Positions 28,241-36,777 are shown, counted from the first letter of the stretch. The stretch is 45,436 bases of DNA from Candidatus Dojkabacteria bacterium (GCA_025999155.1 AP026679.1:466699-512134), one strand, 5' to 3'. The notes: generated by a model from the sequence alone, not told the origin. Numbers and translations: made by a program.

Positions 28241-28676
28241 AAAATTTGAATATTCTTTATTTCGGAAAGAATTTCCCTGCCCGCCTTAAGACGGTCTCGC
28301 TCTTAACAATTTTTCAAAGAGTTGAAAAGAAATAAACAAATGTGAAAAGTTAAAATACTAAGTACAAAATTATGTGTTAGGGTTATTGGTATTGGACATC
28401 TATAGTAGATCATATCCGATCAATTAAATCCTCATAATATGTCGAATTAGTGGGTATTATTGTGATTGATAGACAAAAGATTCTGTTTTTTTCGAAAGAC
28501 ACTAAGGATGCAAAAATATATGACAATTTTTAGGATTTGCTAAAACTCAGAAACCCTATTTTATTATTCTAGCAATGCCTCATTATTTTTATTTTGAATC
28601 ATTTAGCTTTTATTGAAGCTGCGCATAACTCGGCGAAGGTAAATCAATATATGAACCCAAAAGAATTTCTTGATTT

Positions 28677-29944
28677 ATGAAATTTTAAAAAGAAAAATTA
28701 GCAATTATTGGCGGACCAAAGACTATTAAAATAAAACCTCCACATTTTGTTTGGCCAACAATAAACAGAAAAGTAGAAAAAGCGGTTATCAAACAACTTT
28801 ATGAAAGCATTTCCATTTACTATAGAAGTTGTATTTTAAAAGACTTTGAGGATGCTTTTGCTAAATATCATCAAAAAAAATATGCGCTTTTATGTAGTTC
28901 CGGAACAGTAGCTATTCATTCGATGTTTGTTGCTGCTGGATTTAAAGAAGGAGACGAAGTAATTTGTCCAGTTTATACTTTCTTTGCTACTGTTACTCCT
29001 CTTTTATTTACCGGTGCCAAACCAGTTTTTTGCGATATTGATGAAAACGGAAATATCGACCCTCAAGAAATCAAAAAGAAAATTACTTCAAAGACAAGAG
29101 GGGTAATTGTAACTCATATGTGGGGTATCCCTTGCAAAATGGATGAAATTGTTAAAATTTGTAAAGAGAATAATTTATTATTGTGAGAAGATTGTTCTCA
29201 TGCTCACGGTGCAAAATATAAGGGAAAGCTTGTTGGTACTTTCGGCGATTTAGCGGCTTGGAGCCTCCAAGGGCCAAAAATTTAAGTGGTGGAGAAGGAG
29301 GAATTTTAGTTGCCGATAATAAAGAATTTTATTATCGGTCCTTACTTTTGGGACATTATAATAAGCGTTGTAAAGAAGAAATTCCTAAAGACCACCCATT
29401 TTATAAATATGCTGTAACAGGGATGGGTTTAAAATATCGTGCTCATCCTCTCGCGATTACGATAGCTTATCCAATATTTAAAAATTTAGAGAAATATTTA
29501 CGCCTCAAAAGGTTATTTGCTAATAAAATGATTAAAGCATTGAAAGAGGAGCGTGGGATTTTACTACCTCTAGCTTTTTTTGATTCTAAAATTGAACCTG
29601 CTTGGTATGGCTTTGTATTTCAATATAGACCAGAGGAGCTTGATAATCTTCCTATTGAAAAATTTTTTAAAGCATTGCAAGCAGAAGGTTTAAGCGAAGT
29701 TGATAGACCGGGTTCTACTTGTCCTTTAAATCTTTTACCTCTTTTCCAAAATCCGACTGAATTATTTCCTGTTTACAAAAAGCACGATTTTTCTTATAAA
29801 ACTGGCGATTTTCCAAAAGCAGAAAAGTTTTATCAAAATGCCATCAAGTTGCCTGTATGGGCGTCTAAAAATGATTTAAAATTTGTAAATTTATATATCA
29901 GAGGGATAAAAAAGGTGATAAGAAATTACCGTAATTTATTATGA
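28677..29944 (+). pseudogene. DegT/DnrJ/EryC1/StrS-type PLP sugar aminotransferase, disrupted by three lesions
   Basis: Manual translation: MKF*KEKLAIIGGPKTIK...SSGTVAIHSMF...THMWGIPCKMDEIVKICKENNLLL*EDCSHAHGAKYKGKLVGTFGDLAAWSLQG, then a 1-nt frameshift, then KNLSGGEGGILVA... Lesions: in-frame TAA at 28686-28688, in-frame TGA at 29184-29186, and a frameshift around 29273-29282 just before the expected PLP-lysine (KNLSGGEGG). Confidence 0.75.
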
Positions 29945-30459: not shown

Positions 30460-30630
30460 GTTATTAGAATAGATTGAAAAGTTTTGAAGGAATCAAAAAA
30501 ATAAATTATGGTCGTATAGGAATTTTCCAGTTCTTCATTGTGTGATTTAATAAAAGACGTTCTTTTATTTTAGAAATAGACTTCATTACCCTTTTACTGA
30601 AAATTTATTACTTTGTGTCGATTTTGTTTA

Positions 30631-31011
30631 TTAGTTTGAACAAGTATTATTGAAAAATACTGGGGAGAAAAAGTTATTGATTATTTCTGCTAAAGGACTG
30701 CATTTATAACTTATCAGCTTTCAATAGTCAATCATCAATCGAGCATCTGTGAATAATGTTAACCCGGATAAATGGTTTAGAGAAATTTTAAAACCAATAA
30801 ATAAACCTCATGGTGTAATTCTTTTAACTTCGCCAATTAACCAAACAATACAGAAGATACGCTGAATTTCTTGTTTTGGTCTTTGCATTGTGATGCATCC
30901 TTTTATAGGTCCAAACAGCCAATACACAGGAGGAGAAAATTGTTTGCAAATTATCAATTCATTATCACAATTTTTATTTCTTTTGCAGATTTTTCCTTCC
31001 AGATTTATGAA
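30631..31011 (-). pseudogene. Possible relic ORF: 127 codons free of TAA/TAG but containing two in-frame TGA
   Basis: Manual minus-strand translation: FINLEGKICKRNKNCDNELIICKQFSPPVYWLFGPIKGCITMQRPKQEIQRIFCIVWLIGEVKRITP*GLFIGFKISLNHLSGLTLFTDARLMIDY*KLISYKCSPLAEIINNFFSPVFFNNTCSN. The TGAs are at 30808-30810 and 30721-30723. No family was recognised. Confidence 0.3.
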
Positions 31012-31146
31012 TTAAATTTTGTAAAATAAAAGATAAAGTTTGAAACGGTTTAGTTTGAGCACCACAAATACATTTTTTCTCCAAGCAAATCAAAGAACAT
31101 TGTGCAGCCTGTCATAATTTATAATTTTTATTATTCGGTTACGAAT

Positions 31147-32445
31147 TTATTCATTACTTTGTTTGCTGATTTTAAGGTCAAATGTTGGGAGGTTTTCGTG
31201 ACTAGATCTCATTGTATTATCTAGGCTATGTGTAAGTGTATGATTTTTCAATATCTTTCTTTTGTCGTTAAAATAAACTATAGTGATTATAATTCCATAG
31301 ATAATAGTTAAAACAAGGGCTACTAATAGAGCAATATTCAAGGAGTTTTTATTATCATCTTTATTTTGATTTGTATCAGAAGCAGTTGGCGTCAATGTAA
31401 CATTATTTTGGTCCTTTTCCACTTTATAAGTGCTAGTTACAATATTACCAGCTTGGTCTTTAGCTTGTATTATTATTTCTTTAGCGTTGTTTGGTATCGT
31501 TACTTCAGAATTTTGTTCTCCTAATTCTTGACCATCTACGATTACATAATATTTTAATTTTGATTCGGTATTATCGTGAGTTGAAAAATATAATTTATAT
31601 GTACCATCTTCTTTTTGTATTAGTGTTGGAGTAAAAGGATTTGGGGGAGTACTATCTATCCTGATCGCGAAATGAGTAGTTGGCCCCCATCCAACACTAT
31701 TCTTTGCTCGAATATGAAAATAATTGATACCATCAGGGACTTGATTGTATGTAATAGTATCAATGGTACCGTTGATTTCTTCGCCTGGTATTGTATCTGG
31801 TGATGCATCTAATAGATAACTAAACCCGACAACATCAACATCTTTTTTCCAGTTTAGAATTACTGTATTAGATTGATACCACTCATCTTGATTCGTATGA
31901 GTGGTAGAGGATACTTCTACTGCATTAGGCAAAGGTTTTGGCGTTGGGGTTGGAGTCGCTGTAGGAGTTGGTTGAGGCCTTATGATATTAAAAGATCTAC
32001 TTCCACTACCATTTTCAGATCCGGCACCAAGTCCGGTCCCATCAATCTTTCCAGATACTGTTATTGATCCAGTTGTTGCCTTATTTGGGGCTCTTAAATT
32101 TATTGTTAAGACTGGTTTTGATCCCGATGCTGAGCTACCTAATAAAGCACCAGCAAAGGATATAGTATTACCAGCTACAGAGGGACCCGAGACGGCAGTC
32201 CAACCTGGACCTACACTGGTTCCCACATATGTAAATTCTGTAAACGTTACATTTAAATCTACAGCATTATAAGCTGCATCTCTATTAGCTGATATTGTGA
32301 TAGTGACATTTTGTCCGGTGTTGATCGTTGATGGACCTAATATTATAAAACTTGCTGCAGCTTTAACATCCGTGTTTAGTAAGATTGAGGCCCCGGTAAT
32401 TGAAAGTAAGCATATAAATATTGTAAGAGTTTTTCGTATTAACAT
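31147..32445 (-). CDS. Membrane-anchored surface protein with an N-terminal cohesin-like domain
   Basis: Signal peptide MLIRKTLTIFICLLSITGASILL. Cohesin-like beta-sandwich pattern: GQNVTITISANRDAAYNAVDLNVTFTEFTYVG...ISFAGALLG...VLTINLRAPNKATTGSITVSG. PT linker PTPTATPTPTPKP (about 31924-31977). Two Ig-like domains ending in IDSTPP. C-terminal TM IALLVALVLTIIYGIIITIVYF plus a cytoplasmic tail. Starts 4 nt downstream of the protease gene. Confidence 0.6.
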   Translation of the reverse strand: MLIRKTLTIFICLLSITGASILLNTDVKAAASFIILGPSTINTGQNVTITISANRDAAYNAVDLNVTFTEFTYVGTSVGPGWTAVSGPSVAGNTISFAGALLGSSASGSKPVLTINLRAPNKATTGSITVSGKIDGTGLGAGSENGSGSRSFNIIRPQPTPTATPTPTPKPLPNAVEVSSTTHTNQDEWYQSNTVILNWKKDVDVVGFSYLLDASPDTIPGEEINGTIDTITYNQVPDGINYFHIRAKNSVGWGPTTHFAIRIDSTPPNPFTPTLIQKEDGTYKLYFSTHDNTESKLKYYVIVDGQELGEQNSEVTIPNNAKEIIIQAKDQAGNIVTSTYKVEKDQNNVTLTPTASDTNQNKDDNKNSLNIALLVALVLTIIYGIIITIVYFNDKRKILKNHTLTHSLDNTMRSSHENLPTFDLKISKQSNE

Positions 32446-32449
32446 AGTT

Positions 32450-34996
32450 TTACAGATCAGTCTTTTGCCAATTTGCTGCGAGTATACTGAGATCTGACAA
32501 ATTTGTCACATTATCTGAGTTTGTGTCCGATTGTGGATTATTTTTATTCCAGTTTGCAGCGAGAATACTAAGATCACTAATATTGACTATATTGTCACAA
32601 TTAAAATCTGCCTTGGATCTACGTCTATCACAAAGGTAAGTGATCACAAAAGTACGAGAAGACTCTCTTATGTTACCGGCTTTGTCTATAGCTTGTATGG
32701 TAACGTTGTAGTTACCATCTGGCAGAGAGTTAAGTGTGTGTGGAGAAGATACATTTTGAAAGTTGCTACCGTTTACAGAAATTCGATAATTATCAATACC
32801 TGATATGTTATCTGTAGTCGCAAACGTTAATTCAGCGTTATTATTATTGATAGTTACATTTATGTTAAAAGATTCCGGAGGAGTTGCGTCTAGGTACAGA
32901 GTAAATTTATTTGTATCTCGAATGTTGCCTGCTGCATCCTTTGATCTAACAAACCACTCATAAATACCTTCAGCAAGATTAGTATTGGGCGTAAAAGTGT
33001 TACTTTGCAAATTAGTAAAAACTGGATTGTTGTCTAAATAAATCTCATAAGTTAATCCTGGGTGGTTATCTATTGATTCGGACCAATGAAATGATGGCTT
33101 TAATTCTTTTGTTGCGAGACCATTTGATGGACTTATTATAGAAAAATTTGAAGGAGGAGTTCTATCTATTACGATATTAGTCGCTGTCGCTGTTGAAACG
33201 TTTCCATAAAAATCTTCTACTCTTAAAATTATGTTGTAAGTGCCTTCAGGTAATATTGTAGAATCGACTGACATTAATAAACCAGAGCTAACAGACCCTC
33301 TACCTGCAAATTGTCTAATTATCTCTCCGGATGAGATTGATTGGAAAGATATAGTGTATAAGTAAATATCATCATCCGATGCACTCCCCGTGATGTTAAT
33401 TTGACTTTTATGAAAAGTGTCGGATAAGCCTGTGATTGATGCTGTCGGCGGTGTAGTGTCTACTGGCATATCTGGATACTCAAGCGATTCTTTTGCCCTC
33501 ATTTTTCCAAATCCGGTTTCATTATCGAATCCTGTAGTATTTAAGTCTAAAACTCCTTTGATTAACGCATATCGCACCTCTTTAGCTGTCCATGTGGGAT
33601 GTAATGAAAATATAAGACCAGCAAGACCTGAAACATGTGGAGTAGACATAGATGTTCCGGAAACTGGTTGATAGTTCGTAGAAATAGTATTACCCCCTGT
33701 AGTTAGTATAATTTGTCCATATGACGTTATATCAATTCTTTTTCCATGATTAGAAAAGTAAGATTTGTTATCATTGTAATCTATCGATCCGATGCTTAAA
33801 GCTCTAGTACAACCACTAGGGTAGTACTTGGATGCATCATCATTGTCATTACCTGCAGCAGATACAACAAGTACCCCGTTATCCCATGCATAATCTACAG
33901 CGTCTTGTAGGATTTGCGAATAACCTTCTCCACCCAAACTTAAGTTTATAACTTTTGCTCCATTATCTACAGCATAATGTATAGCCGCAACTATATCTAA
34001 ATCATACGAATCTCCAGCATCATTAACTACTTTTATAGACATTATTTTGCAAGACCAACATATACTAGCTATGCCTATATTGTTATTACTTACTGCAGCA
34101 CCTATTATTCCAGCGACAAAAGTACCGTGCCCAAAAGTATCATGTATATTTGCATCTGCTGGTTCACTAACTAAATTTACACCGAATATGTCGTCTTTGT
34201 AGCCATTAGGAGGGGAATTATCATCATTATCGTTAAGAATAGGCGAACCTGGTGATATTATGTCTATGTAATTTATAGTACTATTACCATCAACATCTAA
34301 GTTGTTTGTTAGAAAGTAGTTTATTAGTTCTTGACTATCTACTTGATTATCTGAGTTTGAGTCTATACTGGGAAATAATGCCGTTGGGATTTCTTCTTGA
34401 TTTATCCATAGATTAGTGTGGCCCCAAGTAGTAGGCCCTTGTTTATTAACTATGTCGGGACGCTTAAGATTTATTCCTGAATCTATTACCGCTATAATCG
34501 TGTCAGGAGACCCTGTTGTTATATTCCATGCTGAATTGCTGTCTGATAATGGAGTAAATCCTGAACTTCTGAGATTCCATTGATCGTATTTACCGGATAA
34601 AAAAGTATTTTGAGAGTTAAAATATGGATCATTAGGTGACGATGATACTCGTCGTAAGAAATTTTTATACACACCTAAAACTTTATAATTTTTTTGTAAT
34701 TTAAGTAGTTCTTCTGTATTAGATGCTTTTAATAAGTACCAATCATTATCAGATACATTCAAAACAGTTTTTAGGTTAGTATCATGAATATTTTTATCCG
34801 CCTTTTTCTCTATTTTTACTATATATCCGTCGAATTTTACTTTATCGGTGGGACTTGGTTGTAGGAACGTATTAAAATTATTAGGATTATTTAATGTGTT
34901 TATTGACGCAAAAGTAGCATTATTAAAATTATTAACAGGGTACACTAAAGCAATAAGACATATTATTACATTCAATATGTTTCGTAATAAGGCCAT
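32450..34996 (-). CDS. Secreted subtilisin-like (S8) serine protease with Ig-like domains and a C-terminal dockerin-like module
   Basis: Catalytic triad contexts AVIDSGIN (Asp), HGTFVAGIIGA (His) and SGTSMSTPHVSGLAGLI (Ser). The signal peptide starts from the ATG at 34996 (MALLRNILNVIICLIALVYP). Three domains are bounded by DTTPP / DRTPP / DATPP. The C-terminus has a duplicated Ca-loop plus helix, DFNCDNIVNISDLSILAANW and DTNSDNVTNLSDLSILAANW (about 32453-32640). Confidence 0.85.
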   Translation of the reverse strand: MALLRNILNVIICLIALVYPVNNFNNATFASINTLNNPNNFNTFLQPSPTDKVKFDGYIVKIEKKADKNIHDTNLKTVLNVSDNDWYLLKASNTEELLKLQKNYKVLGVYKNFLRRVSSSPNDPYFNSQNTFLSGKYDQWNLRSSGFTPLSDSNSAWNITTGSPDTIIAVIDSGINLKRPDIVNKQGPTTWGHTNLWINQEEIPTALFPSIDSNSDNQVDSQELINYFLTNNLDVDGNSTINYIDIISPGSPILNDNDDNSPPNGYKDDIFGVNLVSEPADANIHDTFGHGTFVAGIIGAAVSNNNIGIASICWSCKIMSIKVVNDAGDSYDLDIVAAIHYAVDNGAKVINLSLGGEGYSQILQDAVDYAWDNGVLVVSAAGNDNDDASKYYPSGCTRALSIGSIDYNDNKSYFSNHGKRIDITSYGQIILTTGGNTISTNYQPVSGTSMSTPHVSGLAGLIFSLHPTWTAKEVRYALIKGVLDLNTTGFDNETGFGKMRAKESLEYPDMPVDTTPPTASITGLSDTFHKSQINITGSASDDDIYLYTISFQSISSGEIIRQFAGRGSVSSGLLMSVDSTILPEGTYNIILRVEDFYGNVSTATATNIVIDRTPPSNFSIISPSNGLATKELKPSFHWSESIDNHPGLTYEIYLDNNPVFTNLQSNTFTPNTNLAEGIYEWFVRSKDAAGNIRDTNKFTLYLDATPPESFNINVTINNNNAELTFATTDNISGIDNYRISVNGSNFQNVSSPHTLNSLPDGNYNVTIQAIDKAGNIRESSRTFVITYLCDRRRSKADFNCDNIVNISDLSILAANWNKNNPQSDTNSDNVTNLSDLSILAANWQKTDL

Positions 34997-35067
34997 TATA
35001 TCTTCGTCATTATAACATTGTAAAAATTTTGTTTCAATCAAGGATTTTTTTATATATACTTGCTCGT

Positions 35068-36141
35068 ATGAATCAGAAGCCAAGTGATTATTTATTTTTA
35101 GACTCTGATAAGTTTATAAAAGATCTACAATTTGAGCTATGCAATGACATTAAACGAGTTGTTTTCATATATTTTAGATTAGTACATCAAGATTATTTTA
35201 AGAAAATATATCCTTTACTACTTTTTGCGCTCGAACATGGGGCCAAGGTAGAATTTTATTTGGATGGTATTTTTTCTAAGTCAAATCTAGTAAGTGGTCT
35301 ATTATTACCTCCGATTTTTGGGCGTCGTCGTAAAAAACAAGCAAAAGCATCAAGAGCACTACAAAAAGCATTTGATAATTTATCAAAACGAGGGGCTAAA
35401 ATTAATTACTTTAATATACCACAGAATTTTTTGAAAAAATTTTTACTGCAATTCTCTGGAAGAGATCACCGTAAATTTGTTTATGTAGAAAAAAATAATG
35501 GTAAATCTATTACGTATTTTGGGGCGTGTAATTTAGTTAGGTCGGGCACACATGATTTTATGATCAAAATACTGGATTCTGATTTGAGTCATCGATTACT
35601 TGTTGAGAATTTGAATGTATGGCATAACCCTTGTACAGAAGATAAAGTTATAGAAGTATCGGATGAAAAGCGAATTTTGATTGATTCTGGTGCTATATTT
35701 CAGTCTGTAATTTGGAAGACCGGAATTAGTAATATCCGTAATGCTAGAAATAATATTATTTTTGTATCACAAATTCCTCCAGAACCTCCATTATTATACG
35801 AATTTTTTCTTGCTCGTATGAGAGGAGTAAAAGTTCAGATTCTCATTCCTGCATTTAAGCATAAAAATATCTCGAGTTTCCCATACATAATAGCATTTTT
35901 ACTAGCCAGATTAGTGTGTAGTATACTTAGTATACAGCTAATACATGTTAAGCCTGGTTATACACATGCAAAAATTCTGATTTGTGATAATCGTGTCATT
36001 TTAGGATCACATAATATGTCATTTATTGGGGTGGCTGCTGGAACTATTGAGATGAGTATTGATACGAGTGATGCTAATCTATTGAATGCTGCTTTGCGGT
36101 TTACGCATAGATTGCGTGGTTTTGCAAACGGGTTTCACTAA
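35068..36141 (+). CDS. Phospholipase D superfamily protein (two HKD motifs; cardiolipin/phosphatidyl-transferase-like)
   Basis: HKD-like motif 1 is HRKFVYVE...GACN. Motif 2 is the canonical HAKILICDNRVILGSHN. The ATG at 35068 is preferred over the TTG at 35029, which would overlap the protease start. Confidence 0.7.
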   Translation: MNQKPSDYLFLDSDKFIKDLQFELCNDIKRVVFIYFRLVHQDYFKKIYPLLLFALEHGAKVEFYLDGIFSKSNLVSGLLLPPIFGRRRKKQAKASRALQKAFDNLSKRGAKINYFNIPQNFLKKFLLQFSGRDHRKFVYVEKNNGKSITYFGACNLVRSGTHDFMIKILDSDLSHRLLVENLNVWHNPCTEDKVIEVSDEKRILIDSGAIFQSVIWKTGISNIRNARNNIIFVSQIPPEPPLLYEFFLARMRGVKVQILIPAFKHKNISSFPYIIAFLLARLVCSILSIQLIHVKPGYTHAKILICDNRVILGSHNMSFIGVAAGTIEMSIDTSDANLLNAALRFTHRLRGFANGFH

Positions 36142-36147
36142 CTTATA

Positions 36148-36777
36148 ATGCAGCACAAAGGTAAATTGAAAGAAAAAGTATTCATATTTGATTTCGATGG
36201 TACGATAATCGATTCGATTGACGATATTGTATTTATACTATCAAAATATATACCTAATCTTACAAGAAACACATTAAGACAAATACTGGTGGATGTATAT
36301 ATTCGTCATAGTACTTCTGCCCTTTTCAAAATGTTTTATGCTGAAATTTTGATTTTTTTGCATGTCAATCAGGTTTTAAAGAATATAGTTGAAGATACTG
36401 GTAAACTGCCATTAATTCATGATATTCAAGATGTTCTAATTGATTTACATAAAAATGGAGTTAAGCTTTTTGTTGTAAGTTCGAATTTTACAAAGAATAT
36501 TCAGGATTATTTGATATCAAAAAATTTAGATGTTTTTGAGAGAGTAGAGGGCATTGGCATAATATTCGGTAAAGCACGATATATAAAAGCTATTGCAAAC
36601 ACATATTCAGACAGTGATATTTATTATATTGGAGATGACATAAGAGACGTATTAGCTGCAAAAAAAGCGTGCGTCAAGTCCGTTGCTGTCACCTGGGGAT
36701 TAAGTACTAAAGAAGACTTTCAATATGTAGATCCGGATTATATTGTTGATCAACCAACTGATTTACTAAGAATTTGA
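36148..36777 (+). CDS. HAD-superfamily phosphatase (phosphoglycolate phosphatase-like)
   Basis: Motif I FIFDFDGTIIDS, motif II VVSSN, motif III/IV K...YYIGDDIRDVLAAKKA. Confidence 0.75.
   Translation: MQHKGKLKEKVFIFDFDGTIIDSIDDIVFILSKYIPNLTRNTLRQILVDVYIRHSTSALFKMFYAEILIFLHVNQVLKNIVEDTGKLPLIHDIQDVLIDLHKNGVKLFVVSSNFTKNIQDYLISKNLDVFERVEGIGIIFGKARYIKAIANTYSDSDIYYIGDDIRDVLAAKKACVKSVAVTWGLSTKEDFQYVDPDYIVDQPTDLLRI

Follow-up and report, generated by a model that had tools for sequence, protein, structure and literature searches.

Cellulosomes are attached to the cell by surface-layer homology (SLH) domains or by sortase. Outside cellulosomes, cohesin and dockerin modules are said to have been known for a long time, as reportedly set out by Peer et al. 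in 2009, and cohesin and dockerin proteins have reportedly also turned up in "Candidatus Roizmanbacterium". In candidate phyla radiation (CPR, or Patescibacteria) bacteria, which have tiny genomes and of which the few brought into culture live attached to other cells as epibionts (PMC10633639), such proteins have been read as parts of cellulosomes (PMC7038595; bioRxiv 10.1101/2021.08.21.457207), while in "Candidatus Stygibacter" (Cloacimonadota) a predicted cellulosome-like complex comprises dockerin-tagged S8/S53 and C25 peptidases (PMC8542988). Here, we analyze two adjacent genes in a 45,436-nucleotide stretch of the genome of a Candidatus Dojkabacteria bacterium (GCA_025999155.1, AP026679.1:466699-512134), hereafter called the window, which encode a protease ending in a dockerin and a membrane protein carrying a cohesin. 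Probably, these genes form a non-cellulosomal, single-cohesin, transmembrane-anchored cohesin-dockerin display pair.

Both genes are located on the minus strand. Gene 1 (34996..32450) encodes an 848-amino-acid (aa) protease of the S8 (subtilisin) family, predicted to be secreted and recognized by its Pfam matches and triad motifs, and gene 2 (32445..31147) encodes a 432-aa protein that, on the basis of its open reading frame (ORF) and its homologues, is a type I membrane protein with one cohesin (here called the anchor). The stop codon of gene 1 and the start codon of gene 2 are separated by 4 nucleotides (TAA-AACT-ATG), precisely as a preliminary description of the locus had it, and the two co-directional genes probably share one transcript. 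That description also supposed a bacterium with a reduced genome, in agreement with the CPR lineage and the approximately 0.74-Mb size of the source genome. In the closest deposited relative (NCBI), both proteins are labelled "hypothetical protein". The window contains just one cohesin and one dockerin; when its ORFs of 60 aa or longer were scanned in all six frames, no double dockerin motif was found outside the C terminus of the protease.

That C-terminal module is a dockerin by sequence and by fold, as the preliminary description had proposed on the basis of two pattern-like segments. It is compact (residues 793 to 846; 32459..32620, minus strand), consists of two repeats of a Ca2+-binding loop plus helix in phmmer, profile and model alike, and belongs to a protein end that reads ...KADFNCDNIVNISDLSILAANWNKNNPQSDTNSDNVTNLSDLSILAANWQKTDL. 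The repeats, DFNCDNIVNISDLSILAANW and DTNSDNVTNLSDLSILAANW, begin at D797 and D824, 27 residues apart, and have 15 of 22 residues in common, the helix SDLSILAANW being identical in both. Each repeat, DFNCDNIVNISD-LSILAANW and DTNSDNVTNLSD-LSILAANW, shows the 12-residue, EF-hand-like Ca2+ loop expected of a dockerin (D at position 1, N or D at position 3, D or N at position 5, and D at position 12), followed by the helix. These loop residues (D, N, D, D) were invariant or nearly so across sets of 21 and 63 sequences, and in the protease alignment the entire dockerin region is densely invariant.

Comparison with solved structures led to the same assignment. In a phmmer search of the Protein Data Bank (PDB; 177,635 sequences), the last 66 residues of the protease matched the dockerin 2y3n_B across both repeats (E = 4.9e-5), with 36% identity over 58 columns and 6 residues of gap in the alignment. 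The direct score against the Pfam model Dockerin_1 (PF00404) was only 12.9 bits (E = 0.13; model positions 2 to 53 of 57), below the gathering threshold of 22.9, which fits the observation that the linker between the repeats is approximately 6 residues shorter than usual. Homologous modules did pass this cut-off, with 27.6 bits in locus L037, 28.4 bits in L050, and up to 36.1 bits in other cassettes. When a profile of 21 homologous C termini (A6) was used to search the PDB, 2y3n_B was retrieved with an E value of 8.5e-15, together with approximately 30 further dockerins at E ≤ 0.01, while calmodulin-type EF-hands appeared only at E > 0.03. A database search with the dockerin profile also yielded 226 proteins, and among the top 120 listed, almost all carry PF00404. 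Finally, an AlphaFold2 (AF2) model of the 66-aa segment (predicted local distance difference test [pLDDT], 86.4) contains two loop-helix repeats, with helices at positions 24 to 32 and 51 to 59, and 19 of its 21 Foldseek matches in the PDB are dockerins, the best of them with template-modelling (TM) scores of 0.79/0.87 and a root mean square deviation (rmsd) of 1.6 Å. As this is a short domain, the Foldseek E values were weak, with none better than 1.4e-3.

The predicted fold and profile searches identify the N-terminal domain of the anchor (approximately residues 31 to 155; 31981..32355, minus strand) as a cohesin, the beta-sandwich that had been suspected from the sequence pattern. The AF2 model of residues 26 to 158 (pLDDT, 93.6; predicted TM score, 0.87) is all-beta, with 10 strands, and its six best Foldseek matches in the PDB are all cohesins (2jh2, 2w1n, and 2vo8 from Clostridium perfringens and 2xdh from Archaeoglobus fulgidus), with E values of 3.3e-8 to 6e-6, TM scores of 0.65 to 0.78 (0.76 to 0.78 for the C. 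perfringens cohesins), rmsd values of 2.5 to 4.3 Å, and identities of 12 to 19%; unrelated beta-sandwiches, with lower TM scores, follow from rank 7. With a profile of the N-terminal domain (A4), the only significant match in the PDB was 2xdh_A (E = 1.2e-4; 114 of 130 positions), the next being at E = 0.023, and a profile of the whole anchor also found 2xdh (E = 8.7e-4). A single-sequence phmmer search of the PDB with the whole anchor returned nothing meaningful, and the Pfam scan gave no match to Cohesin (PF00963) at E ≤ 1. Nevertheless, PF00963 was found in 2 of 15 anchor homologues (P0012 and P0013; best E value, 1.2e-9), in P0017, P0018, P0020, and others among the proteins matched by the cohesin profile, and in the downstream gene of locus L071 (29.5 versus 24.1 bits). 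The Pfam check proposed in the preliminary description failed for the two window proteins themselves and succeeded for their homologues, fold matches being found for both modules, and membership of the anchor in the Pfam family Cohesin is a matter of transitive homology.

The remainder of the anchor agreed with the preliminary description. A signal peptide (approximately residues 1 to 29, ending ...VKA/AAS; 32359..32445, minus strand) was recognized from a hydropathy peak at residues 5 to 25 followed by an A-x-A-type site, at which cleavage would be expected. The cohesin is followed by a Pro/Thr-rich linker (RPQPTPTATPTPTPKPLP; residues 156 to 173; 31927..31980, minus strand) and then, according to alignments and weak fn3 and Filamin matches in Pfam, by an fn3-like domain (approximately residues 174 to 268) and a Big_13-like immunoglobulin (Ig) domain (approximately residues 269 to 345), together occupying 31411..31926 (minus strand). 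In the fn3-like domain, the motif THxxQxxWY stands out, with H183, W189, and Y190 conserved in an alignment of 16 sequences. A C-terminal transmembrane helix (approximately residues 371 to 392) and a 40-aa cytoplasmic tail starting with NDKRK (31150..31335, minus strand) complete the protein; the corresponding hydropathy peak (2.93; residues 367 to 395) marks the sole internal hydrophobic helix. Read from the sequence, this topology would place the N terminus outside and the single C-terminal helix in the cytoplasmic membrane. The transmembrane segment is present in nearly all anchor homologues, whereas the tail is not conserved. Of the top 150 representatives of 50%-identity clusters, dozens match the anchor architecture from end to end, with total match counts being inflated by large repeat proteins that share fn3 and Ig domains with it.

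As a side observation, the THxxQxxWY fn3-like domain (anchor residues 174 to 268; 31642..31926 in the window) and the Ig domain after it recur as up to approximately 40 repeats in giant proteins of 1,600 to 7,800 aa (P0165 to P0175 in the representative library); this fn3/Ig unit is a widespread stalk module.

The protease itself is an S8 subtilase, with a Peptidase_S8 (PF00082) match at residues 165 to 497 (33506..34504, minus strand; 175.4 bits, E = 2e-51 in the Pfam scan) and the Asp-His-Ser order typical of the family. Its triad is intact, with D172 in AVIDSG, H290 in HGTFV, and S449 in GTSMS; an NLSLGG motif, starting at residue 351, is located between the catalytic His and Ser, and these motifs are kept in orthologues (46 to 51% identity for those in L001, L006, and L007). 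The N-terminal hydrophobic segment (approximately residues 1 to 31; 34904..34996, minus strand), a probable Sec signal peptide, has its hydropathy peak at residues 1 to 22 and is the only hydrophobic segment of the protein, which fits a secreted protease from which the signal would be cleaved. Between the catalytic domain and the dockerin, Ig-like and fn3-like spacer domains, each ending in xDxTPP (approximately residues 510 to 790; 32627..33469, minus strand), were detected in the Pfam scan as three stretches of Big_13 (2.9e-17) plus Big_3_3 and fn3. It had been noticed before that such Ig-like domains occur in both proteins, and indeed residues 674 to 780 of the protease align with residues 236 to 339 of the anchor at 29% identity (E = 3e-8).

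A further feature of the protease, also pointed out previously, is an insert of approximately 55 residues between catalytic residues Asp172 and His290 that resembles a pair of EF-hands in alignment and profile (approximately residues 205 to 250; 34247..34384, minus strand). Its two loops, DSNSDNQVDSQE at residues 212 to 223 (its position 12 being Glu) and DVDGNSTINYID at residues 234 to 245, belong to a segment kept in four orthologues, and a profile of the insert retrieved only EF-hand proteins from the PDB, weakly so (best E value, 9.7e-5, summed over repeats). The possibility that the insert represents a second dockerin was rejected, given its nonsignificant score against the dockerin hidden Markov model (HMM) and its resemblance to generic EF-hands only; it may serve as a Ca2+ switch or stabilizer.

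The pairing of these modules extends to close relatives and well beyond them, so that neither of two outcomes named as refuting in the preliminary description, absent HMM or fold matches and absent co-occurrence in relatives, came about. Genes encoding anchors with 39 to 48% identity to that of the window have an S8-dockerin gene directly upstream and a divergent PLD-like gene (L001 to L003, L006, and L007), and the pair of S8-dockerin gene and anchor gene was found in L001 to L004, L006, L007, L010, L036, L037, L049, and L050. From genomes representing GTDB species, 25 loci were collected by searching with the anchor; 20 of these had a cohesin gene, which in 19 cases had sufficient upstream sequence to be informative. 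In 17 of these 19, the cohesin gene is immediately preceded by a same-strand gene for a C-terminal dockerin, in many cases with a gap of -50 to +40 nucleotides. These loci are labelled Dojkabacteria, Berkelbacteria, CPR2, "Patescibacteria group", and, in many cases, "uncultured Candidatus Saccharibacteria". Loci from outside the CPR (Methanosarcinales, Omnitrophota, Myxococcota, Riflemargulisbacteria, and Termititenax) matched through the fn3-like domain only and had neither cohesin nor dockerin.

To remove the ascertainment bias of such a sample, we also started from the dockerin and collected 36 metagenomic genes with a C-terminal dockerin and at least 600 nucleotides of downstream sequence. 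A cohesin gene directly follows 18 of them (11 of 15 among the closest dockerins), and 6 of the 36 encode a cohesin within the dockerin polypeptide itself, with a downstream cohesin gene in addition in the case of L071. The linkage of dockerin and cohesin is therefore strong but not obligatory. A first cohesin HMM, made from 16 sequences, was too narrow to detect the divergent downstream cohesins of L023, L032, L043, L044, and L046; these were recovered after four local iterations, at which point the model converged at approximately 70 proteins. While this iterated HMM is home-made, it is backed by the Pfam match in L071. Additionally, over 30 nonredundant pairs, distances between dockerins correlate with those between the neighbouring cohesins (r = 0.77), more tightly than those between cohesins correlate with those between the fn3-like domains of the same polypeptides (r = 0.71; 30 pairs), and the partial correlation of dockerin and cohesin after controlling for fn3 is 0.58, a value reached in 0 of 2,000 permutations. 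We regard this covariation as supportive of the pairing, but not decisive.

What is conserved in this arrangement is the order of dockerin and cohesin rather than the cargo. An S8 protease is the cargo in the window and in L001, L006, L007, L010, L037, L049, and L050, but NHL beta-propellers take its place in L013 and L041, an M11/reprolysin-like metallopeptidase does so in L017 (CPR2), and a recurrent cargo of approximately 390 aa has no Pfam domain besides its dockerin. Among the cassette cargoes examined, none had a glycoside-hydrolase match above the Pfam cut-off. Judging from these sequences, the window pair would be one instance of a CPR/Patescibacteria cassette, in which a gene for a dockerin-ended cargo is followed by one for its own transmembrane-anchored cohesin receptor.

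Several loci depart from this simple plan. Two cohesin domains per anchor are encoded in L016 (3264-6086) and L024 (940-3363), one dockerin gene is followed by three consecutive genes for cohesin proteins in L019 (3676-7425), and the gene order in L005 is cohesin, dockerin, cohesin, which suggests that some CPR lineages have small multisocket scaffolds. In four loci from peat metagenomes (Ga0182030/Ga0182024; L053, L056, L059, and L063), single polypeptides of approximately 340 aa comprise a cohesin as well as a dockerin at the C terminus, and in L053, L056, and L063 these adjoin genes whose products, of 410 to 600 aa, have a dockerin near the N terminus (at approximately residue 100). We speculate that the cohesin-dockerin polypeptides of the peat loci could form self-assembling chains. 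Finally, the metagenome-assembled genome CAZZBO01 ("binchicken_co27_251") contains two separate dockerin-then-cohesin cassettes, L021 and L032, with different dockerin helices (LLDVSILASVW and IQDLSLLSNEW, respectively), a difference suggesting that orthogonal specificities may coexist in a single cell.

On the basis of these findings, the following mechanism can be proposed for the window pair. Both products would be exported by the Sec pathway; the anchor would stay in the cytoplasmic membrane, with its cohesin held away from it on the Pro/Thr linker and the two Ig/fn3-like domains, and the secreted S8 protease would plug its Ca2+-loaded C-terminal dockerin into that cohesin. The protease would thereby be kept at the cell surface noncovalently, instead of being lost by diffusion. 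Because the two dockerin helices are identical, the module probably has a dual binding mode, in which it would bind in either of two orientations related by 180 degrees, by analogy with symmetric clostridial dockerins of the kind treated in PMC4728124. As for its role, surface-confined proteolysis seems likeliest, and with a CPR genome of 0.74 Mb it is plausible that this would serve the scavenging of peptides or an attack on, or remodelling of, the surface of a partner cell. In short, the display interpretation of the window pair is supported, with indirect support, from conserved adjacency and covariation, for the step in which the dockerin would bind the cohesin.

A number of observations weigh against this interpretation, and they have to be considered together with the competing explanations. 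The window dockerin scores below the Pfam threshold and the window cohesin has no Pfam match at all, which, together with the additional, internal EF-hand-like Ca2+ module of the protease and the known promiscuity of beta-sandwich folds (with noncohesin matches from rank 7 on), could be taken to mean that the C-terminal repeats are simply a Ca2+-binding, stabilizing tail of a free secreted protease and that the anchor is in its own right an adhesin or envelope protein of the Ig type, with an N-terminal beta-sandwich that has no affinity for dockerins. We consider this very unlikely, since the six best folds and the sole significant PDB profile match of the anchor domain are cohesins, since homologues pass the cut-offs of both PF00963 and PF00404, and since the conserved adjacency to cohesin genes would stay unexplained. 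The protease would already be membrane bound if its N-terminal segment were left uncleaved. Furthermore, the window covers 45 kb of a 738-kb genome, the remainder of which may encode other cohesins or dockerins, and half of the dockerin-first genes are without an adjacent cohesin gene, so distant partners can occur. It could be argued that both modules are real but that the dockerin has its partner elsewhere, be it a different cohesin of the genome or some host-cell structure; the protease would then serve as adhesin or effector, and the two genes would encode merely coregulated surface proteins. In line with this, a function as adhesins has been suggested for noncellulosomal dockerins of Omnitrophota (PMC10066038), and in a cultured saccharibacterium, no co-directional gene with a cohesin annotation adjoins the one for an essential dockerin protein. 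On the other hand, the order of dockerin and cohesin is kept across lineages despite changes of cargo, the window holds no second cohesin or dockerin, and the divergence of dockerins and neighbouring cohesins covaries more tightly than that of two domains of the same anchor, albeit that such a mirror-tree correlation is in part due to shared phylogeny and was obtained from short alignments. On balance, a partner elsewhere seems to us improbable.

The published interpretation of CPR cohesin and dockerin proteins cited above offers another explanation, namely, that the pair is a component of a cellulosome, in which the anchor would be the scaffoldin of enzymes that degrade carbohydrates, with the protease as an accessory subunit. 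The window offers no multicohesin scaffoldin with a carbohydrate-binding module (CBM): its anchor contains just one cohesin and gave no match to a CBM, and the cargo is an S8 protease. With cargoes elsewhere being S8 proteases, NHL propellers, M11/reprolysin-like enzymes, or proteins of unrecognized type, and with no glycoside hydrolase above the Pfam cut-off among them, there is hardly any room left for this explanation. Beyond the display pair of the window, one might generalize that Patescibacteria use plug-and-display as a modular set of exchangeable surface tools where they meet host cells, in which many secreted cargoes, from proteases and beta-propellers to the proteins of approximately 390 aa, each have their own, coevolving, transmembrane-anchored single-cohesin receptor; to this broader proposal we attach no more than tentative credence, somewhat short of even.

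With regard to the genomic context, the protease frame stays open back to a TTG codon at position 35083, and the length of 848 aa is counted from the ATG at 34996. A promoter-like site (TTGAAA, a 17-nucleotide spacer, and TG-TATAAT; 35009..35037, minus strand), identified by its match to the consensus only (11 of 12 positions), is located just upstream of this ATG and thus falls within the TTG-extended ORF, which is why we consider the ATG the likely start of the protease. Divergent from this promoter region, a PLD-like gene (PLDc_2; 35029..36777, plus strand) is found in the window as well as in L001, L006, and L007, and a HAD-hydrolase gene comes next in the window as well as in L001 and L006; this neighbourhood could be a functional link or mere inherited synteny. 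On the other side, between the anchor gene and a convergent Nudix-like gene, approximately 690 nucleotides (30460..31146) contain no ORF of more than 52 aa and no Rfam match at the gathering threshold. Still further away, a DegT/DnrJ/EryC1-type aminotransferase region (28300..29944, plus strand) looks broken, with ORFs at 28923..29186 and 29258..29944 and none for the N-terminal part. A contig with 97% relatedness (L004) likewise has the aminotransferase in pieces, of 168 aa (with PF01041) and 204 aa, and it is possible that the split gene is a pseudogene in this reduced genome. The window, with a GC content of approximately 33%, also contains a ribosomal-protein operon.

The locus offers a concrete, testable mechanism for noncovalent display of a protease on a CPR surface, and the logic of the gene pair recurs in several CPR lineages with different cargoes. 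If the general plug-and-display proposal is true, the routine reading of CPR cohesins and dockerins as a sign of cellulose degradation would be wrong, and cargoes other than glycoside hydrolases would alter the ecological inferences drawn from such annotations. In addition, the compact, internally symmetric dockerin and the small cohesin are candidate orthogonal parts for synthetic surface display.

Compared with the systems described so far, the window pair resembles the anchoring scaffoldins and dockerin-bearing subunits of the cellulosomes of clostridia and ruminococci (type I/II cohesin-dockerin; e.g., 2y3n, Bacteroides cellulosolvens) in that the secreted enzyme ends in a duplicated loop-helix dockerin and the cell-bound protein bears a cohesin with a beta-sandwich fold. 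It differs from them in its single cohesin, the lack of a CBM, its protease cargo, its C-terminal transmembrane anchoring (no SLH or LPXTG/sortase-type anchoring domain was found in Pfam and NCBIfam scans), its dockerin, which is approximately 6 residues shorter between the repeats, and the encoding of cargo and receptor as an adjacent pair. With the modules of C. perfringens glycoside hydrolases (2jh2, 2w1n, 2vo8, 2o4e, and the complex 2ozn) and with A. fulgidus 2xdh, it has in common a use outside cellulose degradation, but the modules of C. perfringens link one secreted enzyme with another rather than with a membrane anchor.

Similarly, in "Candidatus Stygibacter," S8-type peptidases with C-terminal dockerins were proposed to dock on a cell-attached cohesin protein (PMC8542988), whereas the window anchor is a 432-aa, single-cohesin transmembrane protein encoded beside its cargo. 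Reports from Patescibacteria themselves, on the expressed modules of "Candidatus Shapirobacterales" and on SEML1_0315 of Southlakia epibionticum, show that these bacteria possess and express such modules, which can be essential, but they, like those on "Candidatus Roizmanbacterium," differ in reading the proteins as cellulosome or glycan-targeting parts and in describing no dockerin-then-cohesin cassette. SEML1_0315, an essential dockerin protein, was itself checked for a link to the cassette, but none is evident, its neighbours in the annotation table being an opposite-strand alpha/beta hydrolase gene and a tRNA gene. A description of adjacent genes for a dockerin-tagged cargo and a transmembrane cohesin was not found in the literature searched, which is not proof of novelty. 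By analogy, the window pair would work mechanistically like a pair of anchoring scaffoldin and dockerin; the mechanism is a known one, of which we take the cassette of adjacent dockerin-cargo and transmembrane-cohesin genes to be a new form.

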